Source: Thermoplasmata archaeon (GTDB lineage: Archaea; Thermoplasmatota; Thermoplasmata; GCA-020350865). Taken from it: 64,000 bases of DNA. Under the pieces are notes generated by a model. It was not told where the DNA came from. It did no database searches and saw nothing but the letters and a program-made list of their open reading frames with translations. The stretch's first letter is position 1. The number at the start of each line of letters is the position of its first letter. Made by a program: the position numbers and the translations under genes. Shown here piece after piece: positions 20,279 to 56,002 of this stretch. Location of the stretch: NCBI GenBank assembly GCA_020348445.1, contig CP070751.1:3755189-3819188 (forward strand), read 5' to 3'.

Positions 20279-20283
20279 TATGA

Positions 20284-23058: not shown

Positions 23059-23505
23059 TCAGTACATCTTATACGGGCTCGGTCCCAGAGATTTAATGGT
23101 ATCAGTGAAATCCTTCATCAGCTCAGCAAATCTCTGTCCCTCGGAGGCAGATACCCATTCCAGGCGGTATCGCTCGGGCTCGATTCCAAGGTCCTCTAAC
23201 ATTAGAAAGAGGGCATCTGCCCTTTTTTCTGCCTTAAGGTTACCCTCTAGGTAATGGCAATCCCCTGGGTGGCAGCCGCACATGAGCACTCCGTCGGCAC
23301 CTTTTGAGAGTGCATCGATAACAAGGTTTGGATGCACCATGCCAGAGCACATTACACGAATTATACGTATATTGTGGGGGTATTGCAGTCTAGAAGTACC
23401 TGCCAAATCAGCCCCTGTATATGAACACCAATTGCAGCATATTGCCAGTATTAACGGCTCGAATTCCTCTTCTTGCGTTACACCCTCAGCAGCCCCTTCT
23501 TCCAT
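23059..23505 (-). CDS. mvhD: MvhD-type [2Fe-2S] subunit (methyl-viologen-reducing hydrogenase delta subunit family), short form
   Basis: FEPLILAICCNWCSYTGADLAG..IRIIRVMCSG..GCHPGDCHY is the MvhD signature. Translationally coupled to the upstream hdrA. Confidence 0.85.
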   Translation of the reverse strand: MEEGAAEGVTQEEEFEPLILAICCNWCSYTGADLAGTSRLQYPHNIRIIRVMCSGMVHPNLVIDALSKGADGVLMCGCHPGDCHYLEGNLKAEKRADALFLMLEDLGIEPERYRLEWVSASEGQRFAELMKDFTDTIKSLGPSPYKMY

Positions 23506-26500
23506 TTATACCACCTCCAGTGCAGCTCCAATCATTGCAGATATTTGATCCAGTGTAAAACCTTTGACCATAACGCCCCTCTTCGGGCATGTGGCCATGC
23601 ACACACCGCAGCCCTTACAAGCAGCCTCGTTTCGCTCCACAGTCTTCTTCACATTTCCGTTTCTCATGTACTCTATCAACGTCAGAGCATTGAATGGGCA
23701 GGGATCAATACAATATGCACATCCATCACAGTTTTCGTCGATGATCTCCGATATCGTTGGCTCAAGCTCCATGATCTCATCAGAAAGAATCGTGCATGCC
23801 CTGGATACAGCTCCACAAGCCTGGGATATACTCTCATCAATGAATTTTGGGCTGTGTGCCAGGCCACATAAAAACACCCCTTCGGTTGCGAAGTCCACGG
23901 GCCGAAGTTTCATATGGGCCTCCAGGAAGAACTTGTCCTTTGAGAGCGGGATCTTGAGCATCTTAGCCAATTCTTCATTATCTGGCTGCGGCAAAGTGGC
24001 TGCTGAAAGCACCACATATTCTGGTTTTATTTTGATATGCTCTCCTAGGATCGGATCGTTTATAGATACTACCAGATCATCGCCTTCTTTGGTAACCTCA
24101 GGTTTGTTTTCGTCATCGTACCTAATGAACCTCACTCCCTTGTCAGCAGCTTCCCTGTAGTAGTCCTCCCTGAAACCATAAGATCTGATGTCCTTGTAGA
24201 GTACGATTATTTGAGCATCTGGATTCTTTTCCTTGATCTTCAAGGCATTTTTAATGGCATCTGCACAGCATATCCTGCTGCAGTAAGGTCTTTCCTCTAT
24301 CCTTGAGCCAACGCATTGGATCATTACAACACTGTTTGGTTTGATTTCATCCTTAGCAAGTTTCCCCTCAAGGTCCATTTGGGTAAGAACGCGGCTATCT
24401 TCCCTGTATAAATATTCAGTAGGTTTGTATTCTTGACCTCCTGTAGCTACAATAACAACTCCATGCTCGATTTTTGTGTCATCGGAAAGTTCGGTTGTGA
24501 AGCTGCCCATGAATCCTTCTATGCTTTTTACAGTGGTTTCAAGATGTAACTTTATTTTATCGTCATTTTTAACCTTCTCGATAATCTCCTTTAACATCTT
24601 CTGCGGATCCTCACCTTTCTCGCTTAACACATGGTAAATATTTCTGAGATTTCCCCCGAGCTCCTTCTCCCTTTCCACAAGATGAACTTCAAATCCCTGC
24701 TTTGCCATCTCAAGTGCTGCGGTCATGCCAGAAAGTCCACCACCTATGACAAGTCCAGATTGGAATACATTCAGTTCCAGTTTATACAATGGCTCAAGCA
24801 GTCTTGATTTTGCTACAGCCATTCTAACGAGGTCCTTTGCCTTTTTAGTAGCGTTATCAGCATCATGCATGTGCACCCATGAGCACTGGTCCCTGATATT
24901 TGCCATTTCAAAGAGATAGGGATTCAATCCACCTTCCTTTGTGGTGCTCCTGAAAAGAGGCTCATGGGTTCTTGGTGTGCATGATGCCACGATTACTCTG
25001 TTCAGGTTGTGCTCCACAATTTTCTCCTTGATTCCCTTTTGGGTGTCCTCGGAACAGGTATAGAGGTTGTGTTCGGCATGTTCAACATTTGGTAACGTTT
25101 TTGCATATTCCACGACATCTGGAACGTTCACCACACCACCGATGTTGATTCCACAGTGGCAGATAAAGACTCCGATTCTGGGATCCTCACCTAAAACATC
25201 CCTTTCTGGTGGGTACTCCTTGGGAGTGATCATCTTCCCTCTCTCAGAGGAGATAATGGATGATGCTTTGGCTGCTGCTCCACTTGCCTGGGCCACCGTA
25301 TCTGGGATGTCCTTGGGACCGTTGAAAACACCGCTCACATAAACTCCTTCCCTTGATGTTTCCAAGGGTGAGAAAACTCCAGTTGAGCAGAAGTCATACT
25401 TGTTCAAATCAATACCCAGTGTCTCTGCAAATTCCTTCACGTTTTCAGGGGGTCTGAAACCTGTGGATAAAACAACCATGTTGAATTCTTCTTCCTTAAC
25501 CTCCCCATCTTCTACATATTTGATTATGAGGTTGTTAGTTTCAGGTACCTCACGAACCTCGGCCACCCTGCATCGTGTGAACTTGATCTTGTGCTCCTCC
25601 TGGGCTCTCGTGTAGTAATCATCGAATTCCTTACCAAAGGCTCTCAGGTCCATGAAGAAAATATGGGATTTCAAGCCCTCTGAATGCTCCTGAGCAATTA
25701 TCGCCTCTTTCATTGCGAACATGCAACATACTGAGGAACAATATTCGCTTCCTGCTTGGCTGTCTCTGCTTCCCACGCATTGTAAGAACGCCACCTTTTC
25801 TGGAATGTCCCCGTCAGAAGGTCGCATCACTGTACCTGCGAAGGGTCCTGTTGCAGAAAGGAATCTTTCAAATTCCATACTCGATACTACATTCTTGTAT
25901 CTGCCGTAGCCATATTCGGTTTTCAGAGAAGGATCGAACATACTATATCCCGGGGATAAAACGATGGAACCCACATTCAAATCGAACTTCTGCTCCTCTT
26001 GGTCGTACTCCACTGCCTCGGCCTTGCATTCCTCCTGGCAGATGCCGCATCCTATGCATTTTTCCTTGTCTATCATGAATTTCAGAGGAACTGATTGAGG
26101 GTAACGAATAAAGGTCGCCCCCCTTCTAGTCAATCCCCAGTTGTACTCATCTATTGCTTCAACGGGACATTTTGCACCACAGACTCCGCATCCTGTACAT
26201 TTTTCTTCATTGATCCTCCTTGGCCTTCTTACGAGATTAACGTTGAAATTTCCTGCCTCACCTTCAATTGATTCGATCTCTGTGTTGCTGATGACCTCGA
26301 TATTATGATGTCTTCCCGTTCCCACGAGCTTTGGAGCCATGATGCACATGGCGCAGTCGTTTGTTGGAAAGGTTTTATCCAACTGGGACATCACACCTCC
26401 TATTGAGGGGAGCTTATCTATTAGATAAACCTTGAATCCTGCATCTGCAAGATCAAGTGATGATTGCATTCCGGAAATTCCACCCCCGACAACAAGAACC

Positions 26501-26523
26501 GCTCCCACCTTATCATTGCTCAT
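23506..26523 (-). CDS. hdrA: Heterodisulfide reductase subunit A-like flavoprotein, two-module long form (1005 aa)
   Basis: Module 1 has GGGISGMQSSLDLA (FAD GxGxxG), FPTNDCAMC, two CxxCxxCxxxCP ferredoxin motifs and CVGSRD..YCSSVCC. Module 2 has the HdrA N-domain Cys signature (VFICHCGINIGG, ASCTPRTHEPLF, IRDQCSWVH), a second GGGLSG FAD motif and C-terminal ferredoxin motifs. Confidence 0.9.
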   Translation of the reverse strand: MSNDKVGAVLVVGGGISGMQSSLDLADAGFKVYLIDKLPSIGGVMSQLDKTFPTNDCAMCIMAPKLVGTGRHHNIEVISNTEIESIEGEAGNFNVNLVRRPRRINEEKCTGCGVCGAKCPVEAIDEYNWGLTRRGATFIRYPQSVPLKFMIDKEKCIGCGICQEECKAEAVEYDQEEQKFDLNVGSIVLSPGYSMFDPSLKTEYGYGRYKNVVSSMEFERFLSATGPFAGTVMRPSDGDIPEKVAFLQCVGSRDSQAGSEYCSSVCCMFAMKEAIIAQEHSEGLKSHIFFMDLRAFGKEFDDYYTRAQEEHKIKFTRCRVAEVREVPETNNLIIKYVEDGEVKEEEFNMVVLSTGFRPPENVKEFAETLGIDLNKYDFCSTGVFSPLETSREGVYVSGVFNGPKDIPDTVAQASGAAAKASSIISSERGKMITPKEYPPERDVLGEDPRIGVFICHCGINIGGVVNVPDVVEYAKTLPNVEHAEHNLYTCSEDTQKGIKEKIVEHNLNRVIVASCTPRTHEPLFRSTTKEGGLNPYLFEMANIRDQCSWVHMHDADNATKKAKDLVRMAVAKSRLLEPLYKLELNVFQSGLVIGGGLSGMTAALEMAKQGFEVHLVEREKELGGNLRNIYHVLSEKGEDPQKMLKEIIEKVKNDDKIKLHLETTVKSIEGFMGSFTTELSDDTKIEHGVVIVATGGQEYKPTEYLYREDSRVLTQMDLEGKLAKDEIKPNSVVMIQCVGSRIEERPYCSRICCADAIKNALKIKEKNPDAQIIVLYKDIRSYGFREDYYREAADKGVRFIRYDDENKPEVTKEGDDLVVSINDPILGEHIKIKPEYVVLSAATLPQPDNEELAKMLKIPLSKDKFFLEAHMKLRPVDFATEGVFLCGLAHSPKFIDESISQACGAVSRACTILSDEIMELEPTISEIIDENCDGCAYCIDPCPFNALTLIEYMRNGNVKKTVERNEAACKGCGVCMATCPKRGVMVKGFTLDQISAMIGAALEVV

Positions 26524-30300: not shown

Positions 30301-30323
30301 ACTGCTCCAACAGAGTCTGTCAT
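27312..30323 (-). CDS. hdrA: HdrA-like flavoprotein, two-module long form (1003 aa)
   Basis: Same motif set as 23506..26523; roughly 55% identity estimated by eye. Confidence 0.9.
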   Translation of the reverse strand: MTDSVGAVMVVGGGIAGMQSSLDLADSGYRVYLVDKSPSIGGAMAQLDKTFPTNDCAMCIMAPKLVETGRHRNIDLITNSTIDKIEGKAGNFKVTVSKKSRFIDESKCTGCGICTQKCPVEVVDEYNKGLKVRKAIFVKYPQAVPLIFSIDKDYCIGCGNCERLCKAGAIVYSQEPETKVLEVGSIILSPGFDEFDLVQKRKEYGYGRFPNVVSSLELERMLSATGPFGGLVLRPSDGEVVKKIAFVQCVGSRDRSIGNPYCSSVCCMFAIKEAVIAQEHNPGLEATIFFMDMRAFGKEFDDYYVRAEKEHGIRFVKNNRISSIAEDPITNNLLVTFIDKGNLVSEVFDMVALAVGMTAPKDAKDLSEKLGVQLNPYDFCSTDILFSPLETSKPGIFVGGAFGAPKDIPDSVSEASGAAAKASSVIASERGKLVTVKEYPPEKEVSGEEPRIGVFICHCGINIGGVVDVPGVVEYAKTLPNVAYAENNLYTCSQDTQKKIREKIEENNLNRVIVASCTPRTHQPLFQNTCAEAGLNPYLFEMANIRDQCSWVHMHEPAKATQKAKDLVRMVVAKAGLLEPLTRVPIEVKPSGLVIGGGLSGITAAQELSKQGFEAFIVERENELGGLMKRVHYEMVGEKKDVQKKLKELIKNVNSDKKIHVFTNSTVKDISGYIGNFKTTIDQNGEEKEIEHGIVIVATGGMEHKPKEYLYGENDNVMTQLEFEGKLAKKKMDADTVVMIQCVGCRNDERPYCSRVCCTEAVKNALKVKEMNPATSVYVLFKDIRTYGFSEVFYEEAAKNGVKFIRYDDETKPKVADKKGLEVKIWEPFLGEEITIKPDVLVLSAATIPHPDNADLAQMLKVPLSKHKFFLEAHMKLRPVEFATEGIFLCGLAHSPKFFEECVSQASAAVSRAATILSKKTLEAEGMVSSIDEDICSGCGTCVVICPFNAIEKDENGIARVTEVLCKGCGTCAASCPEKAASIKQFTDEQLIAQVVAAVKEVN

Positions 30324-31105
30324 GCCTCCACCTCCTGGGTTTGAGCTAGGTACATTGGTGTTGTACCTTCGATACCCTCTAGTCTAATCAGATTCCTGTC
30401 CCTCAATGTAACGATATGTTTAAGAATGTCCCTTGAAGGGACTTTCATCTTATCAGCAAGCCCTTTGACAGATTGTGGTTTGTCTTTAGCTAGAAGAAGG
30501 ATTCTTGTACGTACGAGCTCTTCATCGATTGCATTTTCCATCAACTCATCTATCCTTTCCTGGGGTATTTTTTCATCATAGACGTTTTCCTTTTCAACCA
30601 GAGCAAGCTCTTTGCCAACAAGTGTTCTTAACCTGAAATCTTCTACAGCGTTTCTTGCGGCATAAAGGGATTCCATGATTAGCAAATTGGGTTTCTCTCC
30701 AGCTACTGGATTTGGTCCCAAGGATCTGACCTGTTCTGTGAAATCCCTCATGGTCTTGGCAAATCTCTCACCTTCGGAGGCGGCTATCCATTCAAGGCTT
30801 AATCTCTCTGGTTCGAGACCGGACTTTGCAAGGACCTTCTTCAGCATTTTCACTCTCCTCTCAGTATGATAATTCCCCTCCATGTAATGGCAATCACCTG
30901 GGTGACATCCGCCAATGAGCACCCCGTCAGCACCTTGGATGAACATCTCGATAACAAACAGGGGATCAACCCTACCGGAGCACATCACCCTCACGATTCT
31001 GATATTGGGTGGATACTGAAATCTGCTAACACCTGCCAAATCTGCTCCTGCGTAACTACACCAATTGCACAAGAAACCAACAATCTTCGGTTCAAATGCC
31101 TTCAT
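30320..31105 (-). CDS. mvhD: MvhD-type protein with C-terminal wHTH-like extension (261 aa)
   Basis: MvhD core plus C-terminal SVKGLADKMKVPSRDILKHIVTLRDRNLIRLEGIEGTTPMY. Confidence 0.8.
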   Translation of the reverse strand: MKAFEPKIVGFLCNWCSYAGADLAGVSRFQYPPNIRIVRVMCSGRVDPLFVIEMFIQGADGVLIGGCHPGDCHYMEGNYHTERRVKMLKKVLAKSGLEPERLSLEWIAASEGERFAKTMRDFTEQVRSLGPNPVAGEKPNLLIMESLYAARNAVEDFRLRTLVGKELALVEKENVYDEKIPQERIDELMENAIDEELVRTRILLLAKDKPQSVKGLADKMKVPSRDILKHIVTLRDRNLIRLEGIEGTTPMYLAQTQEVEA

Positions 31106-31128
31106 CTTCTACACCCCTATTTTTATTA

Positions 31129-34400: not shown

Positions 34401-34433
34401 GACCAAGACCGCACCAACTTTGTCGTTGCTCAT
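31410..34433 (-). CDS. hdrA: HdrA-like flavoprotein, two-module long form (1007 aa)
   Basis: Same motif architecture. Closest paralog of 27312..30323. Confidence 0.9.
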   Translation of the reverse strand: MSNDKVGAVLVIGGGISGMQSSLDLADSGFKVYLLEKSPTIGGAMSQLDKTFPTNDCAMCIMAPKLVETGRHQNIKLITNADMEEVVGDAGHFTVTISKHSRRVDETKCTGCGICTQRCPVEVPDEYNKGFKLRKAIFVRYPQAVPSVYAIDKDICIGCGVCSEVCGAGAIAYDQTEEKMQLEVGSIIVTPGFDEFDLTKKRKEYGYGKYLNVVSSLELERMLSATGPYGGLVLRPSDGKVSKKMAFIQCVGSRDRSIGNPYCSSVCCMFAIKEAVIAQEHNPGLEATIFFMDMRAFGKEFDDYYIRAEKEHGIRFVKNNRISAIAENPNTNNLIINYIEEGELVTEEFDLVTLAVGMTAPKDAKNLSEKLNVDLNEYNFCSTDILFSPLETSRPGIFVGGAFGAPKDIPDSVSEASGAAAKASSVISSERGKLVTVKEYPPEREIGEEEPRIGVFVCHCGINIGGVVDVPDVVEYAKTMPNVAYAENNLYTCSQDTQQKIKEKIEEHGLNRVIVASCTPRTHQPLFQNTVAEAGLNPYLFEMANIRDQCSWVHMREPDAATEKAKDLVRMAVTKARLNSPLPKVPIEVKPSALVIGGGISGMNSALELSKQGYEAFIVERENELGGLMKRIHHELMGEQKDIQKKLKEIVMNIDSDERIHVFTNSTVKDVSGYIGNFKTIIDHNGEDKEIEHGIVIVSTGGEEYKPSEYLYGKNENVLTQLELEEKMAKEQKIDANTIVMIQCVGSRTPERPYCSRVCCTEAVKNALNIKELKPDANIYVLFKDIRTYGFSEIFYEEAARKGIKFIRYDDETKPKVSDKKGIEVKIKEQFLNEDLVLRPDLLILSAATIPHTDNTDLAQILKVPLSKHKFFLEAHMKLRPVEFATEGIFLCGLAHSPKFFEECVAQSSAAVSRAATILSKEKLFVEGTVSSVNEDKCTGCGTCEMVCPYGAIRVDMEELKAKVAEVLCKGCGTCGAACPEKAIDIAHFTDIQLLSQAIAALKEGST

Positions 34434-34741
34434 TAATAAATCCCCCCTATTTCTCTTCCTGACATAAGTCCTCGGATACAGATTGAGAAGTTACATTGAT
34501 CTGTTCTTGCCCGCTCGCAACTATGGCATCTTAAAGTTAACAAAAGTTCTCGGGTTATCTTTTTCTTTGTTTCCTCGTCGATGTCTGGGAGACTTGTTTT
34601 ACAAAGTTGTATGATCTTATTTTGTGTTTGTCCCCAACTTGGTATGGTGGATATACGGCTTTTGTAATCCCATCTGCTTCTTATTTCATCAACAGTTTTC
34701 TTATCCTTTTTGCTCAATTCGCTTTTAGTGTTCTTGGTCAC
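34433..34741 (-). CDS. Conserved small Cys4 protein (paralog)
   Basis: ..LPDIDEETKKKITRELLLTLRCHSCERARTDQCNFSICIRGLMSG. Overlaps the mvhD stop upstream and the hdrA start downstream. Confidence 0.6.
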   Translation of the reverse strand: MTKNTKSELSKKDKKTVDEIRSRWDYKSRISTIPSWGQTQNKIIQLCKTSLPDIDEETKKKITRELLLTLRCHSCERARTDQCNFSICIRGLMSGREIGGIY

Positions 34742-45027: not shown

Positions 45028-45054
45028 TTATGGTACCCCCTTTTTTTGAGCAGG

Positions 45055-46845: not shown

Positions 46846-46874
46846 CTTATGGTCATATTACCAATATCACTTCT

Positions 46875-48020
46875 TTACTTTATTCTTTCTATTATAGCCG
46901 ATATCAGATCACCAACAGGAATATCCACTTTCTCCTTCTCAACAGGTATCTCCTTCCATGTGGCACAAGTGAAGTGAATCACACATTTAGGACAAGTTGT
47001 AATGAGCTTATCGGCCCCTGTATTTTTCGCCTCCATTAACCGATCTATCTGCATTATCTTAGAGAGGGATTCACAGGTTGCAAAGGCATTTACTCCGCAG
47101 CATGCACTGTTCTCCTTTATGTTCTCCATTTCAATCAATTCAAATCCCGCAGCTTCAATGAGTTCCCTGGGGCTGTCGTAGATCTCCAAATGCCTTCCAA
47201 GTCTGCACGGGTCATGGTATGTAACTTTCTCATTTCCATCGCTTTTAAATTCCAGTTTCCCGTCATCCACCAAATCCATTAGATAATCTGTGATGTAAAC
47301 CAGCTCAAAATCCAGATCACCTGCAATATCCTGATAATCGAAATCAAATGTTCTCATCCCTTCTGGGCAGGAAAAAACCACGGTCTTTGCACCAGCTTCC
47401 TTTATTGCCTTGATATTGAGATTCATTAATTTGTCAAAATTATCTTCATCCCCTGTCCAATTGAGATCGTGACCGCAGCATACCTCGTTTTTGCTCATTG
47501 CTGGTGTGATACCGGCTTTGTTCAACACCCTTACATTGTTTTTAGCAATATCAAGGATACCGGCCTTCCTTTCCTCGAAAATCTTATCTAGATGAGCCTG
47601 GCAGCCAGAGAAATAGTACACATCACCCTTTTCTGCAACCTTTAAATCATCGGTAACCCAGCTTAACCTGTTCTGTGGTAACTGGTGAGATTGGATTCTG
47701 GCAATTGTCTGCATCAATCCTCCCTGGGAGCACGTGGGCTCAAATCCGTCTAAAACAGATTCACTTCTAAGTCCTCTGATGAACTCGGTGTAATCCACTT
47801 TGTAAGGACACATCTGACTGCACATGGCACATGTAGTACAGCGCCATATGTCCATGTTCTGGGCAAGGCCCCCCTCCACACCCTCCAATGCCTTAACCAC
47901 TATCAGTCTTGGAGCAAAGTTCTGGTCCAGTTTGGCAACGGGACATACAGTCGTGCATTTACCGCATTCAACACAATCATATGCTCCTGTGTCATCGATG
48001 AGATCATCTATTGCGGACAT
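46875..48020 (-). CDS. HdrD-like / fused HdrC-HdrB-type iron-sulfur protein with CCG domains (GlcF-like)
   Basis: N-terminal 2x[4Fe-4S] (CVECGKCTTVCP, CTTCAMCSQMCP) followed by two cysteine-rich CCG-type segments (EVCCGHDLNW, SACCGVNAF). Confidence 0.75.
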   Translation of the reverse strand: MSAIDDLIDDTGAYDCVECGKCTTVCPVAKLDQNFAPRLIVVKALEGVEGGLAQNMDIWRCTTCAMCSQMCPYKVDYTEFIRGLRSESVLDGFEPTCSQGGLMQTIARIQSHQLPQNRLSWVTDDLKVAEKGDVYYFSGCQAHLDKIFEERKAGILDIAKNNVRVLNKAGITPAMSKNEVCCGHDLNWTGDEDNFDKLMNLNIKAIKEAGAKTVVFSCPEGMRTFDFDYQDIAGDLDFELVYITDYLMDLVDDGKLEFKSDGNEKVTYHDPCRLGRHLEIYDSPRELIEAAGFELIEMENIKENSACCGVNAFATCESLSKIMQIDRLMEAKNTGADKLITTCPKCVIHFTCATWKEIPVEKEKVDIPVGDLISAIIERIK

Positions 48021-51000
48021 TCGATTTCCTCCTTCTGAGGTTTAATGGATTGTTCTATCGGATTCAATGGATTGGGCCCGAGCTCTTTGACCTTGTTTAC
48101 GAACTCTGTCATGACCTCTGCAAATCTTTTTCCTTCGGATGCAGAGATCCATTCTAATCGAACACGCCTTTCATCCATACCCAACAATCCTATAAGTTCT
48201 TTTACGTTTTTGACCCTAATTTCCGCCTTCTCATTTCCTGATATATAATGGCAGTCGCCGATATGACAGCCTGCAACCAGTATACCATCCACTCCTTTAT
48301 GAAGTGCTTCCATAATAAATGATGGGGAGATTCTTCCCGAGCACATCACCCTTATCACCCTGATATTTGGCGGGTACTGAAATCTGGAAACACCTGCCAA
48401 ATCAGCCCCGGCATAGGCACACCAATTGCAGCAGAATGCTAGTATGAAGGGTTCAAATTCCTCCCTCAATTTATGCCCTTCAAGTGCAGAGTCTATCATG
48501 GTATGAATCTGATCATTTTTGAAATGCTTTGTAATGATGGCGTTATTGCAGCAACTTGCAGCACATGCTCCGCAGCCCTTGCATAAAGCCTCATTGATTT
48601 TCGAATGCTTTTTCCCTTCATCATCTGTAATGAGCTCGGGGGCGCCGAACTCACAGATATCGACGCATTCTCCACATCCTCGACATTTTGACTCGTCAAC
48701 AACAGAGATTACAGCATTTGCTTCAAAGAATTTTTTAGAAAGCAAAGTTGCAGCCCTTGATACCGTCCCCTTAGCCTGTGAAATACATTCCTCCAAGAAT
48801 TTTGGTGAATGCGCAAGCCCGCACAAAAAGACCCCCTCGGTTGCGAAATCCAAAGGACGTAATTTCATATGAGCCTCCAGGAAAAATCCATCCTTGGAGA
48901 GGGGAACCTTAAGCATCTTGGCGATTTTTTCATTGTCGACACTGGGTATTGTGGCTGTGCTTAGAACCAAAAGATCTGGATTGATATCGATATTTTCACC
49001 TAGAAAATGATCGAAAATTGATACAGAAAGCTCACCACCTGCAAGCTGAACATCGGGCTTTGAATCGTCATAGTACCTGATGAATATTATACCTGATCTT
49101 GCAGCCTCTTCATAGAAGATCTCGCGAAAGCCGTATGTTCTCATGTCCTTGTATAGGATGTATATATTTGCTTCGGGATTCAATTCCTTCAACTTCAAAG
49201 CATTTTTCACGGCCTCTGAGCAGCAGACCCTGCTGCAATATGTCCGTGTCTCATCCCTGCTTCCCACACACTGAATCATAACTACTGTCTTTGCATCCAC
49301 TTGGCCTTTTCCTAATCTCTCTTCAAAATCCAGTTGGGTGATGATCCTCTCATCCTGGCCGTATAGGTACTCTTTAGGCTCGTAACTGATGCCGCCGGTA
49401 GCAACGATAACGGCTCCATGTTCCAATGTCTTCTCCTCGCCGTTTTCAGAAATAGTGGTTTTAAAATCTCCCACACAACCCTCGATATTCTTGATTTCAG
49501 AATTTACATACACATTTATCTTATCATTGGAATTGATCTTGTCTATGGTTTCCTTTAAAAATTCCTGAAGATTTTCTCCGGTGAGCATATAATGCAGCCG
49601 CTTGAGATTTCCTCCAAGTTCCTTCTCTTTTTCAACGATATGAGCAGCAAATCCATGCTCAGCCAATTCCAAGACAGCCATCATACCCGATATTCCACCG
49701 CCTATGACAAGGGCCGATTGATTTATGGGAATTTCCACTTTATACAATGGTTCAAGCAATCTCGTTTTTGAAATGGCCATTCTCACAAGGTCCTTAGCCT
49801 TCCTTGTTGCAGCCTCTGGCTCGTGCATGTGAACCCATGAGCACTGATCGCGGATATTAGCCATTTCAAAGAAGTATGGATTCAACCCCGCCTCTCTTAC
49901 AGTATTCTGAAAAAGCGGTTCATGGGTTCGGGGTGTACAGCTGGCCACGACAACGCGGTTGAGATTATGCTCCTCTATTTTTGATTTGATTTTTTGCTGC
50001 GTGTCCTGTGAACATGTGTAGGGGTTACTCTCTGCATAAACAACATTAGGTAGGTTTTTAACGTACTCCACAACCTCTGGAACCTTAACTACACCACCTA
50101 TGTTGATTCCGCAGTGGCAAATGAATACTCCCAAACGGGGCTCCTCCTGGGCTACCTCTTTTTCAGGTGGATACTCCTTTACTTCAACAAGTTTGTCCCT
50201 CTCGGACGCAATCAAGGACGAAGCACATGCAGCAGCACCGCTTGCTTGGGCCACAGTATCTGGAATATCCTTTGGAGCCGAAAATGCCCCTGAGACGAAA
50301 ACCCCTTTCCTGTTTGTCTCAAGAGGTGAAGTAACACTTGTTTCGCAAAAGTTGTAATCATTTAACTCAACACCCAATTTCTCGGCGAGCTCCAAGGCAG
50401 TATCTGGTGAGTCCATGCCAACAGAAAGAACAACCAGATCGAACTCTTCTTCCTTTAACTCCCCCTCGTCAACATAATTCAATATTAAATTGTTGGTGTT
50501 TTTATCCTCTTTTACTCCCGAGACCCTGTTGTTCTTCACAAACCCGATTCCATGCTCCTCTTCTGCTCTAATGTAATAATCATCAAATTCCTTGCCAAAT
50601 GCCCGCATGTCCATAAAGAATATGGTTGATTTTAACCCAGGTGCATGCTCCTGTGCTATTACAGCCTCCTTGATTGCGAACATGCAACATACAGATGAGC
50701 AATATGGATTTCCAGACGTCCTATCTCTGGAACCAACACATTGAATAAATGCAACTTTTTTTGGAATCTCGCCGTCAGAGGGTCGCAGAACCAATCCATT
50801 GAAGGGTCCTGTGGCACTGAGCATGCGCTCCATTTCCAAACTTGAGATCACATTTGGGAATTTTCCATAACCATATTCCTTGCGTTTTGATAGAATGTCA
50901 AATTCCTTAAATCCAGGTGACATGATGATGGAGCCAACTTGTATATTGATCTCCTTTTTTTCCTGGGAATATTTTATGGCCTCTGCCTCACACTGGGTCT

Positions 51001-51433
51001 CGCAGAGCCCGCAGCCAATGCATATCTCCTGGTCAATACAATGAACAGGTGGAACAGCTTGAGGATACTTTACATGGATGGCTTTTCTTCTCTTTAGGCC
51101 CTTGTTGTACTCGTCCTTTACTTCAATGGGGCATCTTTGTGTACAAATACCGCATCCCGTACAACGACTTTCATCCACATATCTCGGCCTCTTGGTGAGG
51201 GTGACCTTGAAATTTCCTGCTCCTCCTTCTACATTCTCCAAATCTGCATTTGTGATGAGCTGGATATTGTGATGGCGTCCAGTCTCCACAAGTTTGGGAG
51301 CCATGATGCACATTGCACAATCATTTGTAGGGAAGGTCTTATCAAGCTGGGACATTGCCCCACCGATGCTGGGGCTGTTATCGAGGACATAGACTTTGAA
51401 TCCTGAATCTGCCAGATCCAGTGCAGACTGCAT
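48008..51433 (-). CDS. hdrA: HdrA (two-module long form) fused C-terminally to an MvhD domain (1141 aa as called); N-terminus lacks a canonical start
   Basis: Full HdrA motif set, then a C-terminal FEPFILAFCCNWCAYAGADLAG..GCHIGDCHY MvhD domain. The called ATG (MQSALDLA) falls after the GGGISG FAD motif. The in-frame upstream stretch KKVGAILIIGGGISG contains no ATG/GTG/TTG before the stop at 51572. Confidence 0.8.
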   Translation of the reverse strand: MQSALDLADSGFKVYVLDNSPSIGGAMSQLDKTFPTNDCAMCIMAPKLVETGRHHNIQLITNADLENVEGGAGNFKVTLTKRPRYVDESRCTGCGICTQRCPIEVKDEYNKGLKRRKAIHVKYPQAVPPVHCIDQEICIGCGLCETQCEAEAIKYSQEKKEINIQVGSIIMSPGFKEFDILSKRKEYGYGKFPNVISSLEMERMLSATGPFNGLVLRPSDGEIPKKVAFIQCVGSRDRTSGNPYCSSVCCMFAIKEAVIAQEHAPGLKSTIFFMDMRAFGKEFDDYYIRAEEEHGIGFVKNNRVSGVKEDKNTNNLILNYVDEGELKEEEFDLVVLSVGMDSPDTALELAEKLGVELNDYNFCETSVTSPLETNRKGVFVSGAFSAPKDIPDTVAQASGAAACASSLIASERDKLVEVKEYPPEKEVAQEEPRLGVFICHCGINIGGVVKVPEVVEYVKNLPNVVYAESNPYTCSQDTQQKIKSKIEEHNLNRVVVASCTPRTHEPLFQNTVREAGLNPYFFEMANIRDQCSWVHMHEPEAATRKAKDLVRMAISKTRLLEPLYKVEIPINQSALVIGGGISGMMAVLELAEHGFAAHIVEKEKELGGNLKRLHYMLTGENLQEFLKETIDKINSNDKINVYVNSEIKNIEGCVGDFKTTISENGEEKTLEHGAVIVATGGISYEPKEYLYGQDERIITQLDFEERLGKGQVDAKTVVMIQCVGSRDETRTYCSRVCCSEAVKNALKLKELNPEANIYILYKDMRTYGFREIFYEEAARSGIIFIRYYDDSKPDVQLAGGELSVSIFDHFLGENIDINPDLLVLSTATIPSVDNEKIAKMLKVPLSKDGFFLEAHMKLRPLDFATEGVFLCGLAHSPKFLEECISQAKGTVSRAATLLSKKFFEANAVISVVDESKCRGCGECVDICEFGAPELITDDEGKKHSKINEALCKGCGACAASCCNNAIITKHFKNDQIHTMIDSALEGHKLREEFEPFILAFCCNWCAYAGADLAGVSRFQYPPNIRVIRVMCSGRISPSFIMEALHKGVDGILVAGCHIGDCHYISGNEKAEIRVKNVKELIGLLGMDERRVRLEWISASEGKRFAEVMTEFVNKVKELGPNPLNPIEQSIKPQKEEIECPQ

Positions 51434-51537
51434 GCCTGAGATTCCGCCACCTATTATGAGAATCGCGCCTACCTTTTTTGATTCAGCTTCCTTAATGACT
51501 GAAGCAGCTTCTACCTCGACCTGTCCATCCTTTGCCT

Positions 51538-51861
51538 CTATCCCACCACCCCCTTCCCTGAAAGCAATCCTCTAATGCACACCGAGAAATGACAGGCATC
51601 GCTTCTTGCCCTCTCGCAGCTGTGGCATCTTAACGTGAGAAGTAATTCTCTTGTGATTTTCTTTCTTGTCTCTTCATCTATATCGGGGAGGTTTTCCTTG
51701 CAATCCTGAATGATCTTATTTTGAACCTGAGCCCAGGCGGGTAAGGTGGAGACCTTGTATTTTTTTCTCCAAGAGTTGCGAATATTTTTGATCTTGTCCA
51801 ACTCTTCTTCTTTTATTTCCTTGTCACCATTATTAATTTCCATTTTTGTTCCCCTATTCAA
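51538..51861 (-). CDS. Conserved small Cys4 protein (paralog)
   Basis: ..LPDIDEETRKKITRELLLTLRCHSCERARSDACHFSVCIRGLLSG. Confidence 0.6.
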   Translation of the reverse strand: MNRGTKMEINNGDKEIKEEELDKIKNIRNSWRKKYKVSTLPAWAQVQNKIIQDCKENLPDIDEETRKKITRELLLTLRCHSCERARSDACHFSVCIRGLLSGKGVVG

Positions 51862-52652
51862 TCACTTTGGACATAGTTATATATTGGAGATGAGCCTTCG
51901 ATTTTCTCCAGGCCCACCAATCCCCTGTCCCGAAGTACCACCAGGTGTTCTAGGACCTCTCTTGAGGGGGTTTTAATGTCCTGGGCTATATCTTTGACTG
52001 ACCTGGACTTTTTCATAAGTGACCTCAGAATTCTTTGTCTGAGCATCTCCTCCTCAATAATTTCATCCAGTATCCCATCAAATCGTTCATCTTCGATTTT
52101 GTTGTTGTAGACATTCCCCTTTTCAATTATGTTGTATGCTTTTGCGCAAAGTAATCTCAACCTGAAATCGTTGGCTGCATCCCTTGCTATTAACAATTGC
52201 TCCATAATTTTCAGGTCAGGGGATTTGCCCGAGATCGGGCTTGGCCCAAGTTCCTTAATTTTGTTGGTCATGTCCTTCATTATTTCGGCAAATCTAACAG
52301 ATTCTGATGCAGAGACCCATTCCAATCTTAGCCTCTCTGGGTTCAACCCTACCCTTTGAAGCAGACTCTTGGTCATTTCTATCCTATACACTGTATGATA
52401 ATTACCCTCCATGTAGTGACAGTCCCCGGGATGGCACCCGCCAATAAATACTCCATCAATACCCTGTATGAACATCTCCAGTATTATGGAAGGCTCGATT
52501 CTGGAACTGCACATGACCCTAACGATTCTGATATTATGGGGGTACTGTATCCTGCTCACACCTGCCAAATCGGCTCCGGCATAACAGCACCAATTACAAA
52601 GGTAGCCTATTATCTTTGGATCGAACTCATCCAATGCCCCATCCCCATTCAC
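51858..52652 (-). CDS. mvhD: MvhD-type protein with C-terminal wHTH-like extension (264 aa)
   Basis: MvhD core (FDPKIIGYLCNWCCYAGADLAG..GCHPGDCHY) plus C-terminal SVKDIAQDIKTPSREVLEHLVVLRDRGLVGLEKIEGSSPIY. Confidence 0.8.
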   Translation of the reverse strand: MNGDGALDEFDPKIIGYLCNWCCYAGADLAGVSRIQYPHNIRIVRVMCSSRIEPSIILEMFIQGIDGVFIGGCHPGDCHYMEGNYHTVYRIEMTKSLLQRVGLNPERLRLEWVSASESVRFAEIMKDMTNKIKELGPSPISGKSPDLKIMEQLLIARDAANDFRLRLLCAKAYNIIEKGNVYNNKIEDERFDGILDEIIEEEMLRQRILRSLMKKSRSVKDIAQDIKTPSREVLEHLVVLRDRGLVGLEKIEGSSPIYNYVQSD

Positions 52653-55600
52653 TTGATCTCCTCCTCAAGCAATGGCAACCCTTGAGCTATTAGCTGGTCC
52701 AAGGTGTAATGATTCATGGTAATTGCCCGCTCGGGACACGCGGCGGCACAAGAACCACAACCTTGGCAAAGGGCCTCCATGGTTCTCATTTTCTTCTTCC
52801 CTTCCACTGGCTGTATGGCTCCATAAGGGCATACCTGCTCGCATGTTTTACATCCAATACACCTTTCCTCATCTATCCATGAGGTGATGGGTTCGTTTTG
52901 GGCAAATCCTCTAATCATTGGAATTGCCGCCTTCATTGCGGCTCCACTTCCCTGTACAAGGGACTCGGCTATATTCTTGGGGCTCTGAAGGCATCCTGCA
53001 AGATAAATTCCCTCGACACTGGCCTCGATGGGTGCCAGTTTGATGTGCTTTTCCATACAAAAGCCGCTTCCGCATTGAGTCACCTTAAAATGTCGAAGCA
53101 AATCAGAAGTATCAGGATGATGTGCAACCATTCCCAAAACGAGAATAACTGTGTCCACATTGAGCTCCAATTCCTCTTCTGAGAGTTCATCGAAAACGAG
53201 AATCCTGGCTGATCCCTTCAGATCTTCAACCTTTGGTTTGTTATTGAATTCATATTTTATGAACTGGACACCGAGCTCACAGGCCTTCCTGTACATCTCC
53301 TCCCCGCCTTTACCATAGGTTCTGATATCTCGGTAAAGAACCATCACATTGATTCCCATCTTTTTCAGCTGGATTGCCTGTTTCATGGTGGTTTTACAGC
53401 AGTATCTCGAGCAATCACCAATTCCTTCAGTGCCCTTGCGATCAAAGAGCCGCTCGCACAAAGGATCTCGGGAGCCTACACACATGATAAATGCTATGCT
53501 TTTTGGCTCTCTATCGTTGATTACGATCTCGCCCTTTGTGGGGCCTTCGGGATTCAGTAACCTCTCAAGGCCAATATTGCTGATTACGGTGATTGCCTCA
53601 AGGCTATCTGGGCTGTCCTCGTAACAGTATTCCCCCTGTGGATCGTATACATCAGAGCCGATCGCCAAGACAACTGTTCCGGCCTTAAGCCGTTTAAAGT
53701 CGTTATCAAGGTACTTGATTGATTCTGGGGTTATGGCTCCTGTGGGACATACTTCGGCACATTTACCACATTGATTGCAATCCCTGACCACGATGTTGTA
53801 AGACTTGGGCCATGAATTTGGGTGCATGTATATGGCTTTGCGTGTTGATATCCTCCTGTCAAACAGGTAATGGGATGTAACAGGACACACATCTTCACAT
53901 CTACCGCATGCATCACATTTTTCAATATCCACTCCCCTTGCCCTTTGTGTTATCTCAACCTCGAAATTGCCAAGGTAGCCTTCCACATTCGTAACCTCGG
54001 ATTTCAAATGGACCTTGATATTGGGTCTTCTATCTATTGCTTGGTACATCCTGTCCAATATTATATGGGATGGTTGGCTTTCTGGAAATACCTCTCCCAG
54101 CTGTGCCACCCTACCTCCGAGGTATGCGGCCTTCTCAACAAGATTCACATCAAAACCCATGTTAGCAAGGTCAATTGCACTGCGCATCCCTGCTATTCCA
54201 CCTCCAATTACCAGGGCACTTCTTTCGATCTCGATACTTTTCGGATAGAGCGGTTGTAGATAAGCAGCCTTGGCAACAACCATGCTGATAAGGTCCTTGG
54301 CCTTTTCTGTGGCTTTCTCAGGCTCCTGCATGTGAACCCAGGAGCATTGATCCCTGATATTTGCCATCTCAAATAGGAATGGATTTAGCCCGGCTTTCTC
54401 GCAGGTATCCCTAAATATCGGTTCATGTGTTTTTGGTGTGCATGAGGCAATGACCACCCTATTTAGATTCTTTTCCTTTATCATATTTCCTAGATGTGTC
54501 TGGGAATCCTCTGAACACGTGTAGAGATTCTCCTCGGCATAGACCACATAAGGTAGGGTATTGGCATGCTCAACCACCTTGGGCACATCCACTATACCGC
54601 CTATATTTATGCCACACCGGCATACAAAAACACCAATTCTAAGCTCCTCTGGCTCCCCACCTTCCTCGGGTTTTGTAATATCTTCTTTTATCTCTTCCCT
54701 CTCTATGACGTCCTTTAACCATAACATCGTCCTGGAAGCTGCGGCACTTGCCTCGGCAACACTGTCAGGAATATCCTTCGGGCCAAGGGCACAACCTGCA
54801 AGGGAGATACCGGGTTTAGTGGAATCCACGGGCAATGCATTGATGTGCCTCTCTTTGAAAAATCCGTTTTCATCCAGTTGAATACCAAGAATCTCGGCCA
54901 ATTTACCGTTACTTTTATTGGGGATGATGGTCGTGGAAAGTATTACCAAATCCCCTTTGATTTCCATGGTCTCTCCTTTCTTTATATCACCGACCCGAAC
55001 GAGGATATCATTAGTGTCTGGATCCTCGATAATCTCAGCAGGCTTGCCTTTTACAAAATCGATTAAGATTTCGTCTTTGGCCCTGAGATAGTAATTTTCA
55101 AAGTGCTTGCCATAGGCTCTGATATCCATGTATAAAATGTGCATCTCCTCGATATTTGGGTCATGCTCCTTGGCTATCATGGCCTCCTTTATGGAATGCA
55201 TGCAGCAAACGGCAGAGCAGTAGCTGCATCTGTTAACATCACGAGAGCCGACACATTGAATAAATACAACGCTCTTCGGTGGTTTGCCGTCAGACGGTCT
55301 AAGAATCTTGCCCTGAGTAGGACCCGATGCACTCATGAGCCTTTCGAACTCTAATGAAGAGATAATATTCACGTACTGGTCATATTTATACTGGGGAACC
55401 ATGGAGGGAGGCAGGATATCGTATCCTGTGGCAACTATTATCGCACCCACATCCAATAGAATTTCTATATCCTTTTGCTCAAAGTCTATGGCACCCCGTA
55501 AGCAAGCTTTTTCGCATAACCTGCACTTCCCTTTTAAAAAATAGGTGCAATTCTCAGAATCGATGGTATATATCAACGGTACCGCCTGTGGAAATGGGAT

Positions 55601-56002
55601 GTAAATTGCCTTTCTATGGGTCATTCCCATATCAAATTCAGAGGGTACTTTCTTAGGACATTTCTCAGCACATGTTCCACAACCAGTGCACTTTTCTTCG
55701 TCGATGTACCGTGCATGCTTCAATATCTTAACTTTAAACTCCCCAGCCTTTCCTTGGCACTCCAAAAGCTCTGAATTTGCCAGAATCTCGATATTTGGAT
55801 GTCTTCCAGCCTCTACTAATTTAGGCGAGAGAATGCACATAGAGCAATCGTTTGTCGGGAAGGTCTTGTCAAGTTGTGCCATCTTGCCCCCCAGTGAGGG
55901 GGACTTCTCAACAAGATATGTCTTAACACCAGCATTTGCCAAATCCAGTGCCGCTTGAACACCGGCAATACCGCCACCTATTACAAGCACACCTTTATTC
56001 AT
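52649..56002 (-). CDS. hdrA: HdrA-like flavoprotein, long variant with extra ferredoxin insert (1117 aa)
   Basis: N-module (VLVIGGGIAGVQAALDLA, FPTNDCSMC). HdrA Cys-domain (VFVCRCGINIGG, ASCTPKTHEPIF, IRDQCSWVH). Second FAD motif (GGGIAGMRSAIDLA). Additional CDACGRCEDVCP / CNQCGKCAEVCP and C-terminal CIGCKTCEQVCP / CQGCGSCAAACP clusters. Confidence 0.85.
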   Translation of the reverse strand: MNKGVLVIGGGIAGVQAALDLANAGVKTYLVEKSPSLGGKMAQLDKTFPTNDCSMCILSPKLVEAGRHPNIEILANSELLECQGKAGEFKVKILKHARYIDEEKCTGCGTCAEKCPKKVPSEFDMGMTHRKAIYIPFPQAVPLIYTIDSENCTYFLKGKCRLCEKACLRGAIDFEQKDIEILLDVGAIIVATGYDILPPSMVPQYKYDQYVNIISSLEFERLMSASGPTQGKILRPSDGKPPKSVVFIQCVGSRDVNRCSYCSAVCCMHSIKEAMIAKEHDPNIEEMHILYMDIRAYGKHFENYYLRAKDEILIDFVKGKPAEIIEDPDTNDILVRVGDIKKGETMEIKGDLVILSTTIIPNKSNGKLAEILGIQLDENGFFKERHINALPVDSTKPGISLAGCALGPKDIPDSVAEASAAASRTMLWLKDVIEREEIKEDITKPEEGGEPEELRIGVFVCRCGINIGGIVDVPKVVEHANTLPYVVYAEENLYTCSEDSQTHLGNMIKEKNLNRVVIASCTPKTHEPIFRDTCEKAGLNPFLFEMANIRDQCSWVHMQEPEKATEKAKDLISMVVAKAAYLQPLYPKSIEIERSALVIGGGIAGMRSAIDLANMGFDVNLVEKAAYLGGRVAQLGEVFPESQPSHIILDRMYQAIDRRPNIKVHLKSEVTNVEGYLGNFEVEITQRARGVDIEKCDACGRCEDVCPVTSHYLFDRRISTRKAIYMHPNSWPKSYNIVVRDCNQCGKCAEVCPTGAITPESIKYLDNDFKRLKAGTVVLAIGSDVYDPQGEYCYEDSPDSLEAITVISNIGLERLLNPEGPTKGEIVINDREPKSIAFIMCVGSRDPLCERLFDRKGTEGIGDCSRYCCKTTMKQAIQLKKMGINVMVLYRDIRTYGKGGEEMYRKACELGVQFIKYEFNNKPKVEDLKGSARILVFDELSEEELELNVDTVILVLGMVAHHPDTSDLLRHFKVTQCGSGFCMEKHIKLAPIEASVEGIYLAGCLQSPKNIAESLVQGSGAAMKAAIPMIRGFAQNEPITSWIDEERCIGCKTCEQVCPYGAIQPVEGKKKMRTMEALCQGCGSCAAACPERAITMNHYTLDQLIAQGLPLLEEEIK

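Follow-up and report, generated by a model that had tools for sequence, protein, structure and literature searches.

A conserved cluster of genes for HdrA-type flavin and iron-sulfur proteins lies on contig CP070751.1 (assembly GCA_020348445.1), within the 64,000-nucleotide stretch analyzed here (positions 3,755,189 to 3,819,188; hereafter the window). The cluster comprises eight HdrA units, each accompanied by one MvhD domain, and it is reasonably probable that these serve as partner-specific isoenzymes for flavin-based electron bifurcation or its reversal, confurcation. Seven of the units appear, from their domain order and cysteine content, to be pseudo-heterodimers of the BamE or type II HdrA kind (six fused, one split between the genes A4 and A5). 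Judged by its closest relatives, the host is an uncultured Thermoplasmata archaeon and not a member of the anaerobic methanotrophic lineage ANME-1. All parts of the array can be assigned to known families, with the exception of a small protein with four conserved cysteines (Cys4 protein).

A fused HdrA dimer combined with a long MvhD adaptor has been seen at atomic level only recently, in one bacterial enzyme, the class II benzoyl-CoA reductase (BCRII). The locus described here holds the same building block seven-fold in an archaeon, with a hydrogenase and an F420 subunit adjoining and one HdrD-like outlet. The novelty lies in this seven-fold expansion of BamEF-like units within one Thermoplasmata array, in the copy-number variation among close relatives, and in the Cys4 accessory protein, which exists both fused and split. 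As such, the array offers a natural paralog set for probing partner choice in flavin-based electron bifurcation, and the Cys4 protein is a new candidate accessory subunit.

Organization of the array

The open reading frame (ORF) listing and Pfam matches define an uninterrupted run of 22 co-directional genes on the minus strand, which extends over 33 kb from 56002 to 23059. Nine genes are HdrA-like, seven encode free MvhD proteins, four encode Cys4 proteins, one encodes a protein with CCG domains and one is FrhB-like. Their order is A1-D1-s1-A2D-CCG-A3-D3-FrhB-A4-A5-D5-s5-A6-D6-s6-A7-s7-D7-A8-D8-A9-D9. An earlier note, made from the sequence letters alone, had placed nine HdrA-like genes on this strand between the same limits, and Pfam agrees with that count and with the HdrA and MvhD family assignments. 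The eight MvhD genes that it listed are eight in terms of domains, of which seven are free genes (D1, D3 and D5 to D9) and one is fused in A2D. Pfam matches and ORF spacing together give a ratio of HdrA units to MvhD domains of 8:8, i.e., 1:1. The genes, in the direction of reading and in window coordinates, are the following.

52649-56002, minus strand: A1, two-module HdrA of 1117 aa (Pfam; NCBIfam HdrA2, 1177 bits)
51858-52652, minus strand: D1, long MvhD of 264 aa (PF02662, E=9.5e-53, plus HTH_5/HTH_20; winged helix at nt 51915-52046)
51538-51861, minus strand: s1, Cys4 protein of 107 aa, C-x2-C-x7-C-x4-C; dN/dS 0.06 (qualitative)
48008-51433, minus strand: A2D, 1141 aa, two-module HdrA plus short C-terminal MvhD (residues 997-1119, nt 48077-48445)
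46875-48020, minus strand: CCG, HdrD/BamD-like protein of 381 aa (PF02754, E=4e-24)
45055-46845, minus strand: A3, single-module HdrA of 596 aa
44310-44888, minus strand: D3, short MvhD, called at 192 aa (PF02662, E=7e-51)
43050-44177, minus strand: FrhB/FdhB-like F420-binding iron-sulfur flavoprotein subunit of 375 aa (PF04432, E=3e-38; PF04422, E=2e-21)
41543-42850, minus strand: A4, free-standing module 1 of 435 aa
39639-41543, minus strand: A5, free-standing module 2 of 634 aa (PDB alignment)
38836-39642, minus strand: D5, long MvhD of 268 aa with winged helix
38534-38839, minus strand: s5, Cys4 protein of 101 aa
35523-38588, minus strand: A6, two-module HdrA (A6-A9 are about 1003-1021 aa as called); 1003 aa from the likely start at 38534
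34738-35523, minus strand: D6, long MvhD of 261 aa with winged helix (FlpD, E=1e-55; HTH_20, HTH_5)
34433-34741, minus strand: s6, Cys4 protein of 102 aa
31410-34433, minus strand: A7, two-module HdrA of 1007 aa
31129-31413, minus strand: s7, Cys4 protein of 94 aa, preceding D7
30320-31105, minus strand: D7, long MvhD of 261 aa with winged helix
27312-30323, minus strand: A8, two-module HdrA of 1003 aa
26520-27311, minus strand: D8, long MvhD of 263 aa with winged helix, not followed by a Cys4 gene
23506-26523, minus strand: A9, two-module HdrA of 1005 aa, the most widely conserved paralog
23059-23505, minus strand: D9, short MvhD of 148 aa, found directly before mvhG-mvhA in relatives

Two of these calls need adjustment. 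The true start of A6 is probably at 38534, which gives 1003 aa, and the D3 frame is probably over-long, with a start near 44765 or 44756, since its relatives measure 143-151 aa.

Genes within the run are tightly packed. At 15 of the 21 junctions, neighbors overlap by 1-4 nt, abut with a 0-nt gap, or show a larger overlap due to over-long ORF calls. AT-rich spacers of 104-199 nt precede A2D, D3, FrhB and A4, and a spacer of 275 nt lies upstream of A1. Operon boundaries are inferred solely from spacer length and AT-rich, TATA-like stretches, with transcription predicted to start before A1, FrhB and A4. Rfam and tRNA scans of the whole window returned no match. The repeating unit of hdrA, mvhD and a Cys4 gene proposed earlier is present, but four times only and once in the order A7-s7-D7, and the pairs A8-D8 and A9-D9 have no s gene. 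In a relative, the metagenome-assembled genome (MAG) contig CBDUXN010000001.1 (locus L020, 18114-19552), about 1.4 kb separates FrhB from A4, compared with 199 nt in the window.

Module anatomy of the HdrA copies

The nine HdrA-like genes contain 15 thioredoxin reductase-like (TrxR) domains that bind flavin adenine dinucleotide (FAD), two more than the 13 counted previously. All 15 were aligned to HdrA of M. thermolithotrophicus, whose sequence was rebuilt from PDB alignments and whose numbering is used below. The four cysteines that bind the [4Fe-4S] cluster of the TrxR domain (Cys386, 399, 403 and 404) are present in every domain, and the GxGxxG FAD motif stands at the domain start in 14 of 15 within the called ORFs. 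Lys409 is kept in 14 domains (Gly in A3) and Glu356 likewise in 14 (Asp in module 2 of A6), a hallmark that is indecisive alone.

Two kinds of module recur. Module 1 forms the N-terminal half of A1, A2D and A6-A9 and makes up all of A4. It carries Cys194/Cys197, all eight cysteines of the inserted ferredoxin domain, the four HA4 cysteines, Glu356 and Lys409, and it has neither the N-terminal cluster domain nor the C-terminal ferredoxin domain. Module 2 forms the C-terminal half of A2D and A6-A9 and makes up all of A5. It holds the five cysteines of the N-terminal domain, the HA4 cysteines, Lys409 and a C-terminal ferredoxin domain with eight cysteines, and it lacks Cys194/197 and the inserted ferredoxin domain. 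In A1, module 1 spans nt 54662-56002, and module 2 has everything that a classical HdrA contains (N-terminal cluster domain, FAD, inserted and C-terminal ferredoxin domains) except Cys194/197. Seven units, six of them fused (A1, A2D, A6-A9) and one split (A4+A5), show an exact complementarity between modules. In A9, the cysteine pair would fall at about residues 57/60 and the lysine at about residue 272, according to the alignment offset.

A4 and A5 overlap by ATGA and jointly correspond to one two-module protein, unfused; the pair is kept in most Thermoplasmata loci. A5 had been described as a classical form of about 600 aa, together with A3, and this description does not hold for either. With A4 as its first half, A5 completes a split two-module protein, both A3 and A5 lack the inserted ferredoxin domain, and A5 also lacks Cys194/197. 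A3 stands apart. It combines the N-terminal cluster domain with Cys194/197, has Gly in place of Lys409, and has Asp in place of one cysteine of the C-terminal ferredoxin domain. Because the N-terminal domain and Cys194/197 occur in the same chain, A3 could be of the homodimer type.

Amino acid identity among A2D and A6-A9 is 59-79%, with A7 and A8 the closest pair (79%) and A7 the youngest paralog. A1 is 47-50% identical to the other copies, A4 and A5 are 44-54% identical to the matching modules, and A3 only 32-35% identical to the others. These values replace the 55-85% estimated by eye.

The start of A2D deserves separate mention. A GGGISG motif appropriate to module 1 lies in frame at 51434-51571 on the minus strand, upstream of the first ATG, GTG or TTG and after a TAG stop, and relatives have longer ORFs at this place. 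Either A2D starts at a non-canonical codon, or the sequence contains an error, or the first FAD site is truncated. Read-through of the TAG as pyrrolysine was considered and rejected: 4 of 41 genes use TAG as their stop codon, and the frame upstream of A2D is simply an alternative frame of s1.

Long MvhD adaptors and the Cys4 protein

All eight MvhD domains match PF02662 with E values of 1e-51 to 1e-56, and five cysteines are conserved in every copy. In a Foldseek comparison of an AlphaFold2 (AF2) model, the domain resembles PDB chain 5ODC_D with a template modeling score of 0.87 and 52% identity. The short form is represented by D3, D9 and the MvhD domain of A2D. D1, D5, D6, D7 and D8 (261-268 aa) extend the MvhD domain by a helical linker of about 60 residues and a winged helix of the ArsR/HlyU type, supported by Pfam HTH_5/HTH_20 matches and by a PDB profile search that returned ArsR/HlyU regulators (2p4w, E=2e-5). 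This long form constitutes a large family in metagenomes. No in-frame TGA occurs in the MvhD genes of the window, where a cysteine occupies the CNWC motif.

The Cys4 proteins s1, s5, s6 and s7 (94-107 aa) share the motifs STLPxW, LPD(I/V)D(E)ETK and LRCHxCERxxxxxCxFSxC(I/V)RGL(L/M)SG. Pfam, NCBIfam and PDB hold no relative of the family: PDB profile and Pfam hidden Markov model searches (E up to 10) gave only sub-threshold, zinc-knuckle-like noise. A profile search of 1.84 billion representative proteins retrieved seven clusters only. One of these, together with about 20 clusters that came to light later, consists of single proteins in which MvhD, linker, winged helix and Cys4 region are joined. 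Because it is fused to MvhD and winged helix in other Thermoplasmata, the Cys4 protein can be regarded as a detachable C-terminal end-piece of the long MvhD adaptor. It is most likely a metal-binding docking or relay piece.

Structural prediction was informative for part of this assembly. The AF2 model of a natural MvhD-winged helix-Cys4 fusion (P0257, alignment of 67 sequences) has a confidence score (pLDDT) of 82, with values above 90 across the linker and winged helix, and consists of one alpha/beta domain plus helices; its Cys4 part falls below 50-80. A Foldseek search of this model against the PDB gave MvhD chains and weak ArsR/MarR matches only, and no solved chain covers the long adaptor. 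A model of the Cys4 protein built from the four window paralogs reached a pLDDT of 57 and was unusable.

The CCG protein and the FrhB-like subunit

The window contains one CCG-domain gene only, as had been stated before. Its product has two ferredoxin CxxCxxCxxxC motifs and two CCG domains. When scanned against the pattern CX31-39CCX35-36CXXC, the second domain is canonical with five cysteines; the first retains four (C..CC..C-P-E-G) and lacks the fifth. The best NCBIfam matches are TfrB, LdhH and HdrC, all below cut-off, and the scores for HdrB, HdrC and HdrD are far below. The FrhB-like gene, also below cut-off in NCBIfam (frhB and FpoF), had been overlooked in the array, and frhB was to be sought elsewhere in the assembly.

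Integrity and conservation of the array

A repetitive locus of this kind raises the possibility of an assembly artefact, with expanded or chimeric paralogs, or of a graveyard of decaying duplicates. The arrangement in CP070739.1, a circular MAG, lends this some substance. There, array orthologs occupy two blocks 1.4 Mb apart (L013, 1680793-1703795; L080/L003, 3105081-3141206), and the breaks fall within the orthologs of A5 (cut into residues 1-557 and 543-634) and A1 (last 75 residues left). This split reflects either a real rearrangement or a misjoin, and at least one assembly or genome is rearranged.

The remaining evidence makes artefact or decay a practically negligible prospect. Paralogous DNA stretches are 65-73% identical and share no exact repeat of 28 nt or more, so collapse or expansion by an assembler is implausible. 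The full order from A1 to D9, minus D6-s6-A7, is found on CBDUXN010000001.1, a Thermoplasmata MAG with 83-88% amino acid identity, and parts of the array occur in a JGI contig of 121 kb, in GCA_975848915.1 and in two circular MAGs, CP070739.1 and CP070726.1. The misassembly that had been allowed for earlier thus finds no echo in these independent assemblies. None of the array genes has an internal stop codon. Compared with CP070739.1, every gene has a nonsynonymous rate (dN) of 0.03-0.15 and a ratio to the synonymous rate (dN/dS) of 0.02-0.18, ratios that are qualitative only because dS is saturated (>1 or not computable) against both relatives. All copies, the small genes included, are maintained by purifying selection.

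Comparison with characterized systems

The closest structural parallel is BamDEF of the class II benzoyl-CoA reductase from G. metallireducens. Cryo-electron microscopy has shown BamE to be a fused HdrA dimer: its N-terminal TrxR domain holds the bifurcating FAD (Lys280) and a Cys59-Cys62 pair, which gates low-potential electron flow into the inserted ferredoxin domain, and a second FAD, with Gln in place of Lys, is off-pathway (10.64898/2026.04.10.717634). In the same complex, BamF exceeds an ordinary MvhD by more than 100 residues and docks the input module BamI through its winged helix; BamD resembles HdrD, has an altered distal non-cubane cluster and lacks a heterodisulfide site (10.64898/2026.04.10.717634). 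The window proteins agree with BamDEF in size (about 1005, 261 and 381 aa), domain order and cysteine pattern; both BamE, at about 1000 aa, and BamD, at about 380-450 aa with one altered non-cubane site, have counterparts in the window HdrA and CCG proteins.

Sequence comparisons extend this parallel to bam-type clusters of other bacteria, where BamE- and BamF-like proteins are 47-50% identical to HdrA (A6-A9) and 40-46% identical to MvhD, respectively. Two such loci were inspected, a bamEFGHI-type cluster of Syntrophorhabdus (L074, 338-10228) and a bamBCDEF-type cluster of Desulfatiglandales (L079, 9453-16351). Their BamE-like proteins have a cysteine and domain pattern identical to that of the two-module HdrAs, and the BamF-like protein of L074 shares the FlpD plus HTH_5 architecture of the long MvhDs. 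The L074 BamF-like ORF starts at position 28 of the FlpD profile, consistent with a selenocysteine codon upstream. The extended MvhD and the two-module HdrA named in the earlier note are not confined to the locus, being known as BamF/BamE architecture and as type II HdrA (PMC12054007, PMC9012536).

The differences from benzoyl-CoA reductase are equally clear. Domains of the AFOR, Complex1_51K and 2Fe-2S_thioredx families occur in L074 and L079 and gave no match in a Pfam scan of all array ORFs of at least 90 aa and most such flanking ORFs. The window has no BamB/C, the AOR-type tungsten enzyme, and no BamGHI, which are NuoEF-like. Because it lacks AOR- and NuoEF-type genes, the locus is, by gene content, not a benzoyl-CoA reductase; it uses a BamDEF-like building block. 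It also holds seven units versus one in the Bam system, has Cys where BamF has selenocysteine, includes an extra Cys4 protein, and has Mvh hydrogenase and FrhB as its visible input modules. The second Rossmann-like domain and the selenocysteine of BamF, which is known here from the preprint description only, are not matched by the long MvhDs.

Archaeal type II HdrA (classes A3 and A3+MVH; PMC12054007) corresponds to the fused HdrA3/4 and tandem HdrA5/6 of ANME (PMC9012536) and has been described as a fusion of classes A6 and A12 (PMC12054007). In tandem or fused HdrA, the complementary occurrence of Cys197 and the N-terminal domain implies heterodimer-like action (PMC9012536). The array shares with type II HdrA the two TrxR domains per protein, the complementary loss of Cys197 and N-terminal domain, the optional C-terminal MvhD fusion (compare A2D), and, as in some clusters, association with FdhB/FrhB and HdrD. 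It differs in three respects. Type II HdrA surveys cover mcr-containing archaea only, and the window host belongs to a Thermoplasmata lineage; the catalytically dead molybdopterin protein of a typical type II cluster is absent from the window; and copies per array are far more numerous.

With the MvhADG-HdrABC complex of hydrogenotrophic methanogens (PDB 5ODC), the array has in common the HdrA fold and cofactor ligands (phmmer E values down to 1e-209) and a neighboring Mvh-type hydrogenase. In that complex, HdrA is a homodimer of 650-aa chains with two symmetric circuits, and HdrBC serves as heterodisulfide reductase. In contrast, the window encodes fused asymmetric dimers, no HdrBC, and MvhDs that mostly carry a winged helix. 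MetFV-HdrABC-MvhD of Moorella thermoacetica (cited in PMC9012536) differs in that the window has neither MetF/MetV nor HdrBC. Multi-copy fused HdrA has been reported from Asgard and TACK archaea (PMC11237513) and from ANME-1 as per-genome counts, without a single co-directional array of paired long MvhD adaptors and Cys4 genes.

Proposed function

By homology to Mvh-Hdr and BamDEF, the FAD of module 1 would split electron pairs, or merge them in the reverse direction. [quoted passage not shown] The low-potential branch would pass from the cysteine pair to the N-terminal cluster, on to the inserted ferredoxin domain and finally to ferredoxin. From the HA4 cluster, the high-potential branch would reach either the one HdrD/BamD-like CCG protein or partners encoded at other loci. 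Possible electron sources are the Mvh-type hydrogenase (for A9-D9), F420H2 through FrhB, or partners docked on the winged helix.

Gene neighborhood suggests a division of labor among the units. A9-D9 may exchange electrons with the Mvh hydrogenase, taking or giving them, and A2D may work with the BamD-like CCG protein. Units with a long MvhD would dock partners encoded elsewhere via the winged helix and Cys4 piece. A3-D3-FrhB is probably an F420-linked, non-bifurcating electron-transfer module. Taken as a whole, the array most likely links H2, F420, ferredoxin and further partners as a toolbox for bifurcation and confurcation. As the earlier note had argued, most units probably do not reduce heterodisulfide, since there is a single CCG gene and its degenerate motif resembles the one reported for BamD.

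Several observations weigh against the proposal of partner-specific bifurcating isoenzymes. The Lys409 and Glu356 columns are kept in module 2, so the sequence cannot show that the FAD there is structural only, and the BamE-like proteins of L074 and L079 likewise retain the lysine column, hence the hallmark does not discriminate. A2D as called has no dinucleotide-binding motif in module 1. The cysteine region of the Cys4 protein falls below confident AF2 modelling in both models, and the window encodes no AOR/BamB, NuoEF/BamGH, electron-transferring flavoprotein or HdrB/C.

Alternative explanations

The gene inventory itself could be read as a set of paralogs of the classical heterodisulfide reductase, acting on the coenzyme M-coenzyme B heterodisulfide (CoM-S-S-CoB) in an archaeon that metabolizes methane or alkanes by reverse or forward methanogenesis. 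HdrA, MvhD, an HdrD-like protein, an FrhB-like protein and Mvh hydrogenase are the Hdr parts of a methanogen, NCBI labels the closest genome 'Methanomassiliicoccales archaeon', and ANME-1 has been reported with many HdrA copies, in excess of hdrBC, and with clusters that contain FdhB only (PMC9012536). Such a role is improbable all the same. Close relatives are all Thermoplasmata MAGs, neither HdrB nor HdrC is encoded within the window, and the single CCG protein, with its degenerate motif, scores far below the HdrB/C/D equivalog cut-offs. Moreover, many Thermoplasmata carry the core cluster, related modules are found in Syntrophales, Dehalococcoidia and Desulfotomaculum, organisms without CoM-S-S-CoB synthesis, and non-methanogenic Thermoplasmata that carry hdr and mvh genes are on record (10.1101/2020.03.09.984617). 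Large hdrA arrays need not mark methane or alkane oxidizers of the ANME-1 type, an assumption that is corrected here.

Joined through winged-helix/Cys4 adaptors, the units could form one multi-module super-complex with bifurcation and confurcation modules in series. From A4 to D9, 14 genes either overlap or lie no more than 23 nt apart, suggesting co-translation, and the fusion of MvhD, winged helix and Cys4 points to a dedicated partner for the winged helix. In BCRII, the winged helix of BamF physically couples a second bifurcation module to BamE (10.64898/2026.04.10.717634), and two coupled bifurcations have been proposed for clusters of type II and type I HdrA (PMC12054007). We nevertheless consider a super-complex unlikely, as HdrA numbers of 4, 8 and 9 in close relatives, one of which misses D6-s6-A7, suit independent isoenzymes better, and more than two bifurcations in series would require an equal number of high-potential acceptors, none of which is encoded here. 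A further reading can be entertained tentatively: the winged helix and Cys4 would form a hitherto unrecognized plug-in docking or electron-relay module for HdrA-type bifurcating enzymes, through which the seven BamEF-like units couple to one another or to other partners, as a combinatorial, hierarchical network in a non-methanogenic Thermoplasmata archaeon. The same domains could instead constitute a redox-sensing, DNA-binding regulator tethered to MvhD that reports redox state to transcription. The extension clearly belongs to the ArsR/HlyU winged-helix family and bears the HxxxLRxxGLV signature typical of the recognition helix, JGI pipelines label relatives 'delta subunit/ArsR family regulator', and a compact Cys4 motif beside a helix-turn-helix recalls iron-sulfur or metal sensors such as SoxR and ArsR/SmtB. 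A regulatory role is decidedly improbable. The operon-like array contains five copies, all of them in translational coupling with an HdrA, and in BamF, the only solved homolog, the winged helix is bound to a protein subunit and not to DNA (10.64898/2026.04.10.717634). A repeated operator-like DNA motif did not turn up either, although no search aimed at one was made. Partner-specific isoenzymes thus remain the preferred explanation.

Distribution and origin

The frame of ANME-1 and Syntrophoarchaeum, into which the array had been placed, gives way to a Thermoplasmata one. The best matches of A9 all come from Thermoplasmata MAGs, with 94% amino acid identity in CP070739.1, 87-90% in two others and at most 69% thereafter. 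An exact look-up of A9 in the contig index gave no match, so that collection does not include the window. Dozens of Thermoplasmata carry a shorter cluster with the gene order MvhD, an A2-like protein (about 1011 aa), CCG (531-660 aa), A4 (about 431 aa), A5 (about 625 aa), a long MvhD, an A9-like protein (about 1013 aa), MvhD, MvhG, MvhA and HypE. Sediment Thermoplasmata, a group with a poorly understood energy metabolism, commonly have this three-unit version. The pairing of two-module HdrA with long MvhD also occurs in Syntrophales, Desulfobacterales, Dehalococcoidia, Desulfotomaculum, Bathyarchaeia and Hadarchaeota.

A neighbor-joining tree and the locus survey resolve separate old orthology groups for A9, A2D, A1 and A4+A5, and a young clade A6/(A7,A8). 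Because their orthologs occur across many Thermoplasmata, A9, A2D, A1 and A4+A5 appear to predate the host lineage. The core of three units (A2-like, A4+A5 and A9-like) is, on this distribution, ancient and widespread in Thermoplasmata. Paralogs are 59-79% identical and sister-genome orthologs 83-95%, so serial tandem duplication, which had been proposed for the whole array, applies to A6/(A7,A8) alone. The array may have originated from the three-unit core by gain of A1 and A3-D3-FrhB, followed by a lineage-specific tandem triplication that produced A6, A7 and A8.

Copy number varies among close relatives, with 4, 8 or 9 HdrA genes. A7 is present in the window and in CP070739.1 and absent from CBDUXN010000001.1 and the JGI contig, and the CP070726.1 copy at the A7 position has A6 as its nearest window paralog (76%). 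On JGI contig Ga0452215_000182 (L001), only four HdrA genes lie in the 10 kb recovered upstream of A9, with the hydrogenase adjoining. In CP070726.1 (L081), the array ends with an A8 truncated at 254 aa beside unrelated genes.

Other loci show further variants of these proteins. Near 2.14 Mb of CP070739.1 (L030, 1208-9004), the last 1427 residues of a 2598-aa ORF form a two-module HdrA whose module 1 bears a GltD/NfnB-like insertion (Fer4_20 plus Pyr_redox_2) and is 'type III-like'; the first 1171 residues have zinc-ribbon matches only, and the ORF call may be over-long. To our knowledge, a type III-like insertion has so far been reported only for ANME-1 and Bathyarchaeota. In Syntrophales and other Deltaproteobacteria (L055-L063, L066 and L070), an HdrA-like protein of about 1500 aa, a long MvhD of about 250 aa, a two-module HdrA of about 1015 aa and an MvhD of about 112 aa recur together.

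Hydrogenase and flanking genes

The physical linkage to an mvhGA-type hydrogenase and to hyp genes, remarked on earlier, is borne out by Pfam and NCBIfam matches. These genes lie beyond D9, at lower window coordinates.

19202-21729, plus strand: Mvh/Vhu-type [NiFe] hydrogenase, divergent to the array (Pfam; small subunit 19202-20278, large subunit 20284-21729)
21777-22202 and 22465-22929, minus strand: two paralogous FKBP-type peptidyl-prolyl isomerases (PF00254), between array and hydrogenase
11843-12307, plus strand: HypA, hydrogenase maturation
12318-13430, plus strand: HypD, hydrogenase maturation
17163-18227, minus strand: HypE-like protein, hydrogenase maturation
18592-19107, minus strand: HycI-type protease, hydrogenase maturation

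The best NCBIfam models for the hydrogenase are VhuA (456 bits) and VhuG (215 bits), both under the equivalog cut-offs. Its Ni-Fe ligands are intact (CGVC62-65, DPCLSC450-453), and it displays the features of group 3c, the F420-non-reducing Mvh/Vhu type, with D9 adjacent and the order D-HydS-HydL in relatives. The FKBP pair may act as SlyD-like helpers of nickel insertion; at the corresponding place, relatives carry a single copy or none. Unrelated genes are interspersed among the maturation genes between 11843 and 19107.

Flanking genes unrelated to the array encode a B12-binding radical SAM protein (3401-4861, minus strand), a NosD-like beta-helix protein (1799-3193, minus strand), a 1035-aa fn3-containing and possibly surface-located protein (8175-11282, plus strand), an SRAP peptidase (13498-14289, minus strand) and a CAAX-type protease (14650-16260, minus strand).

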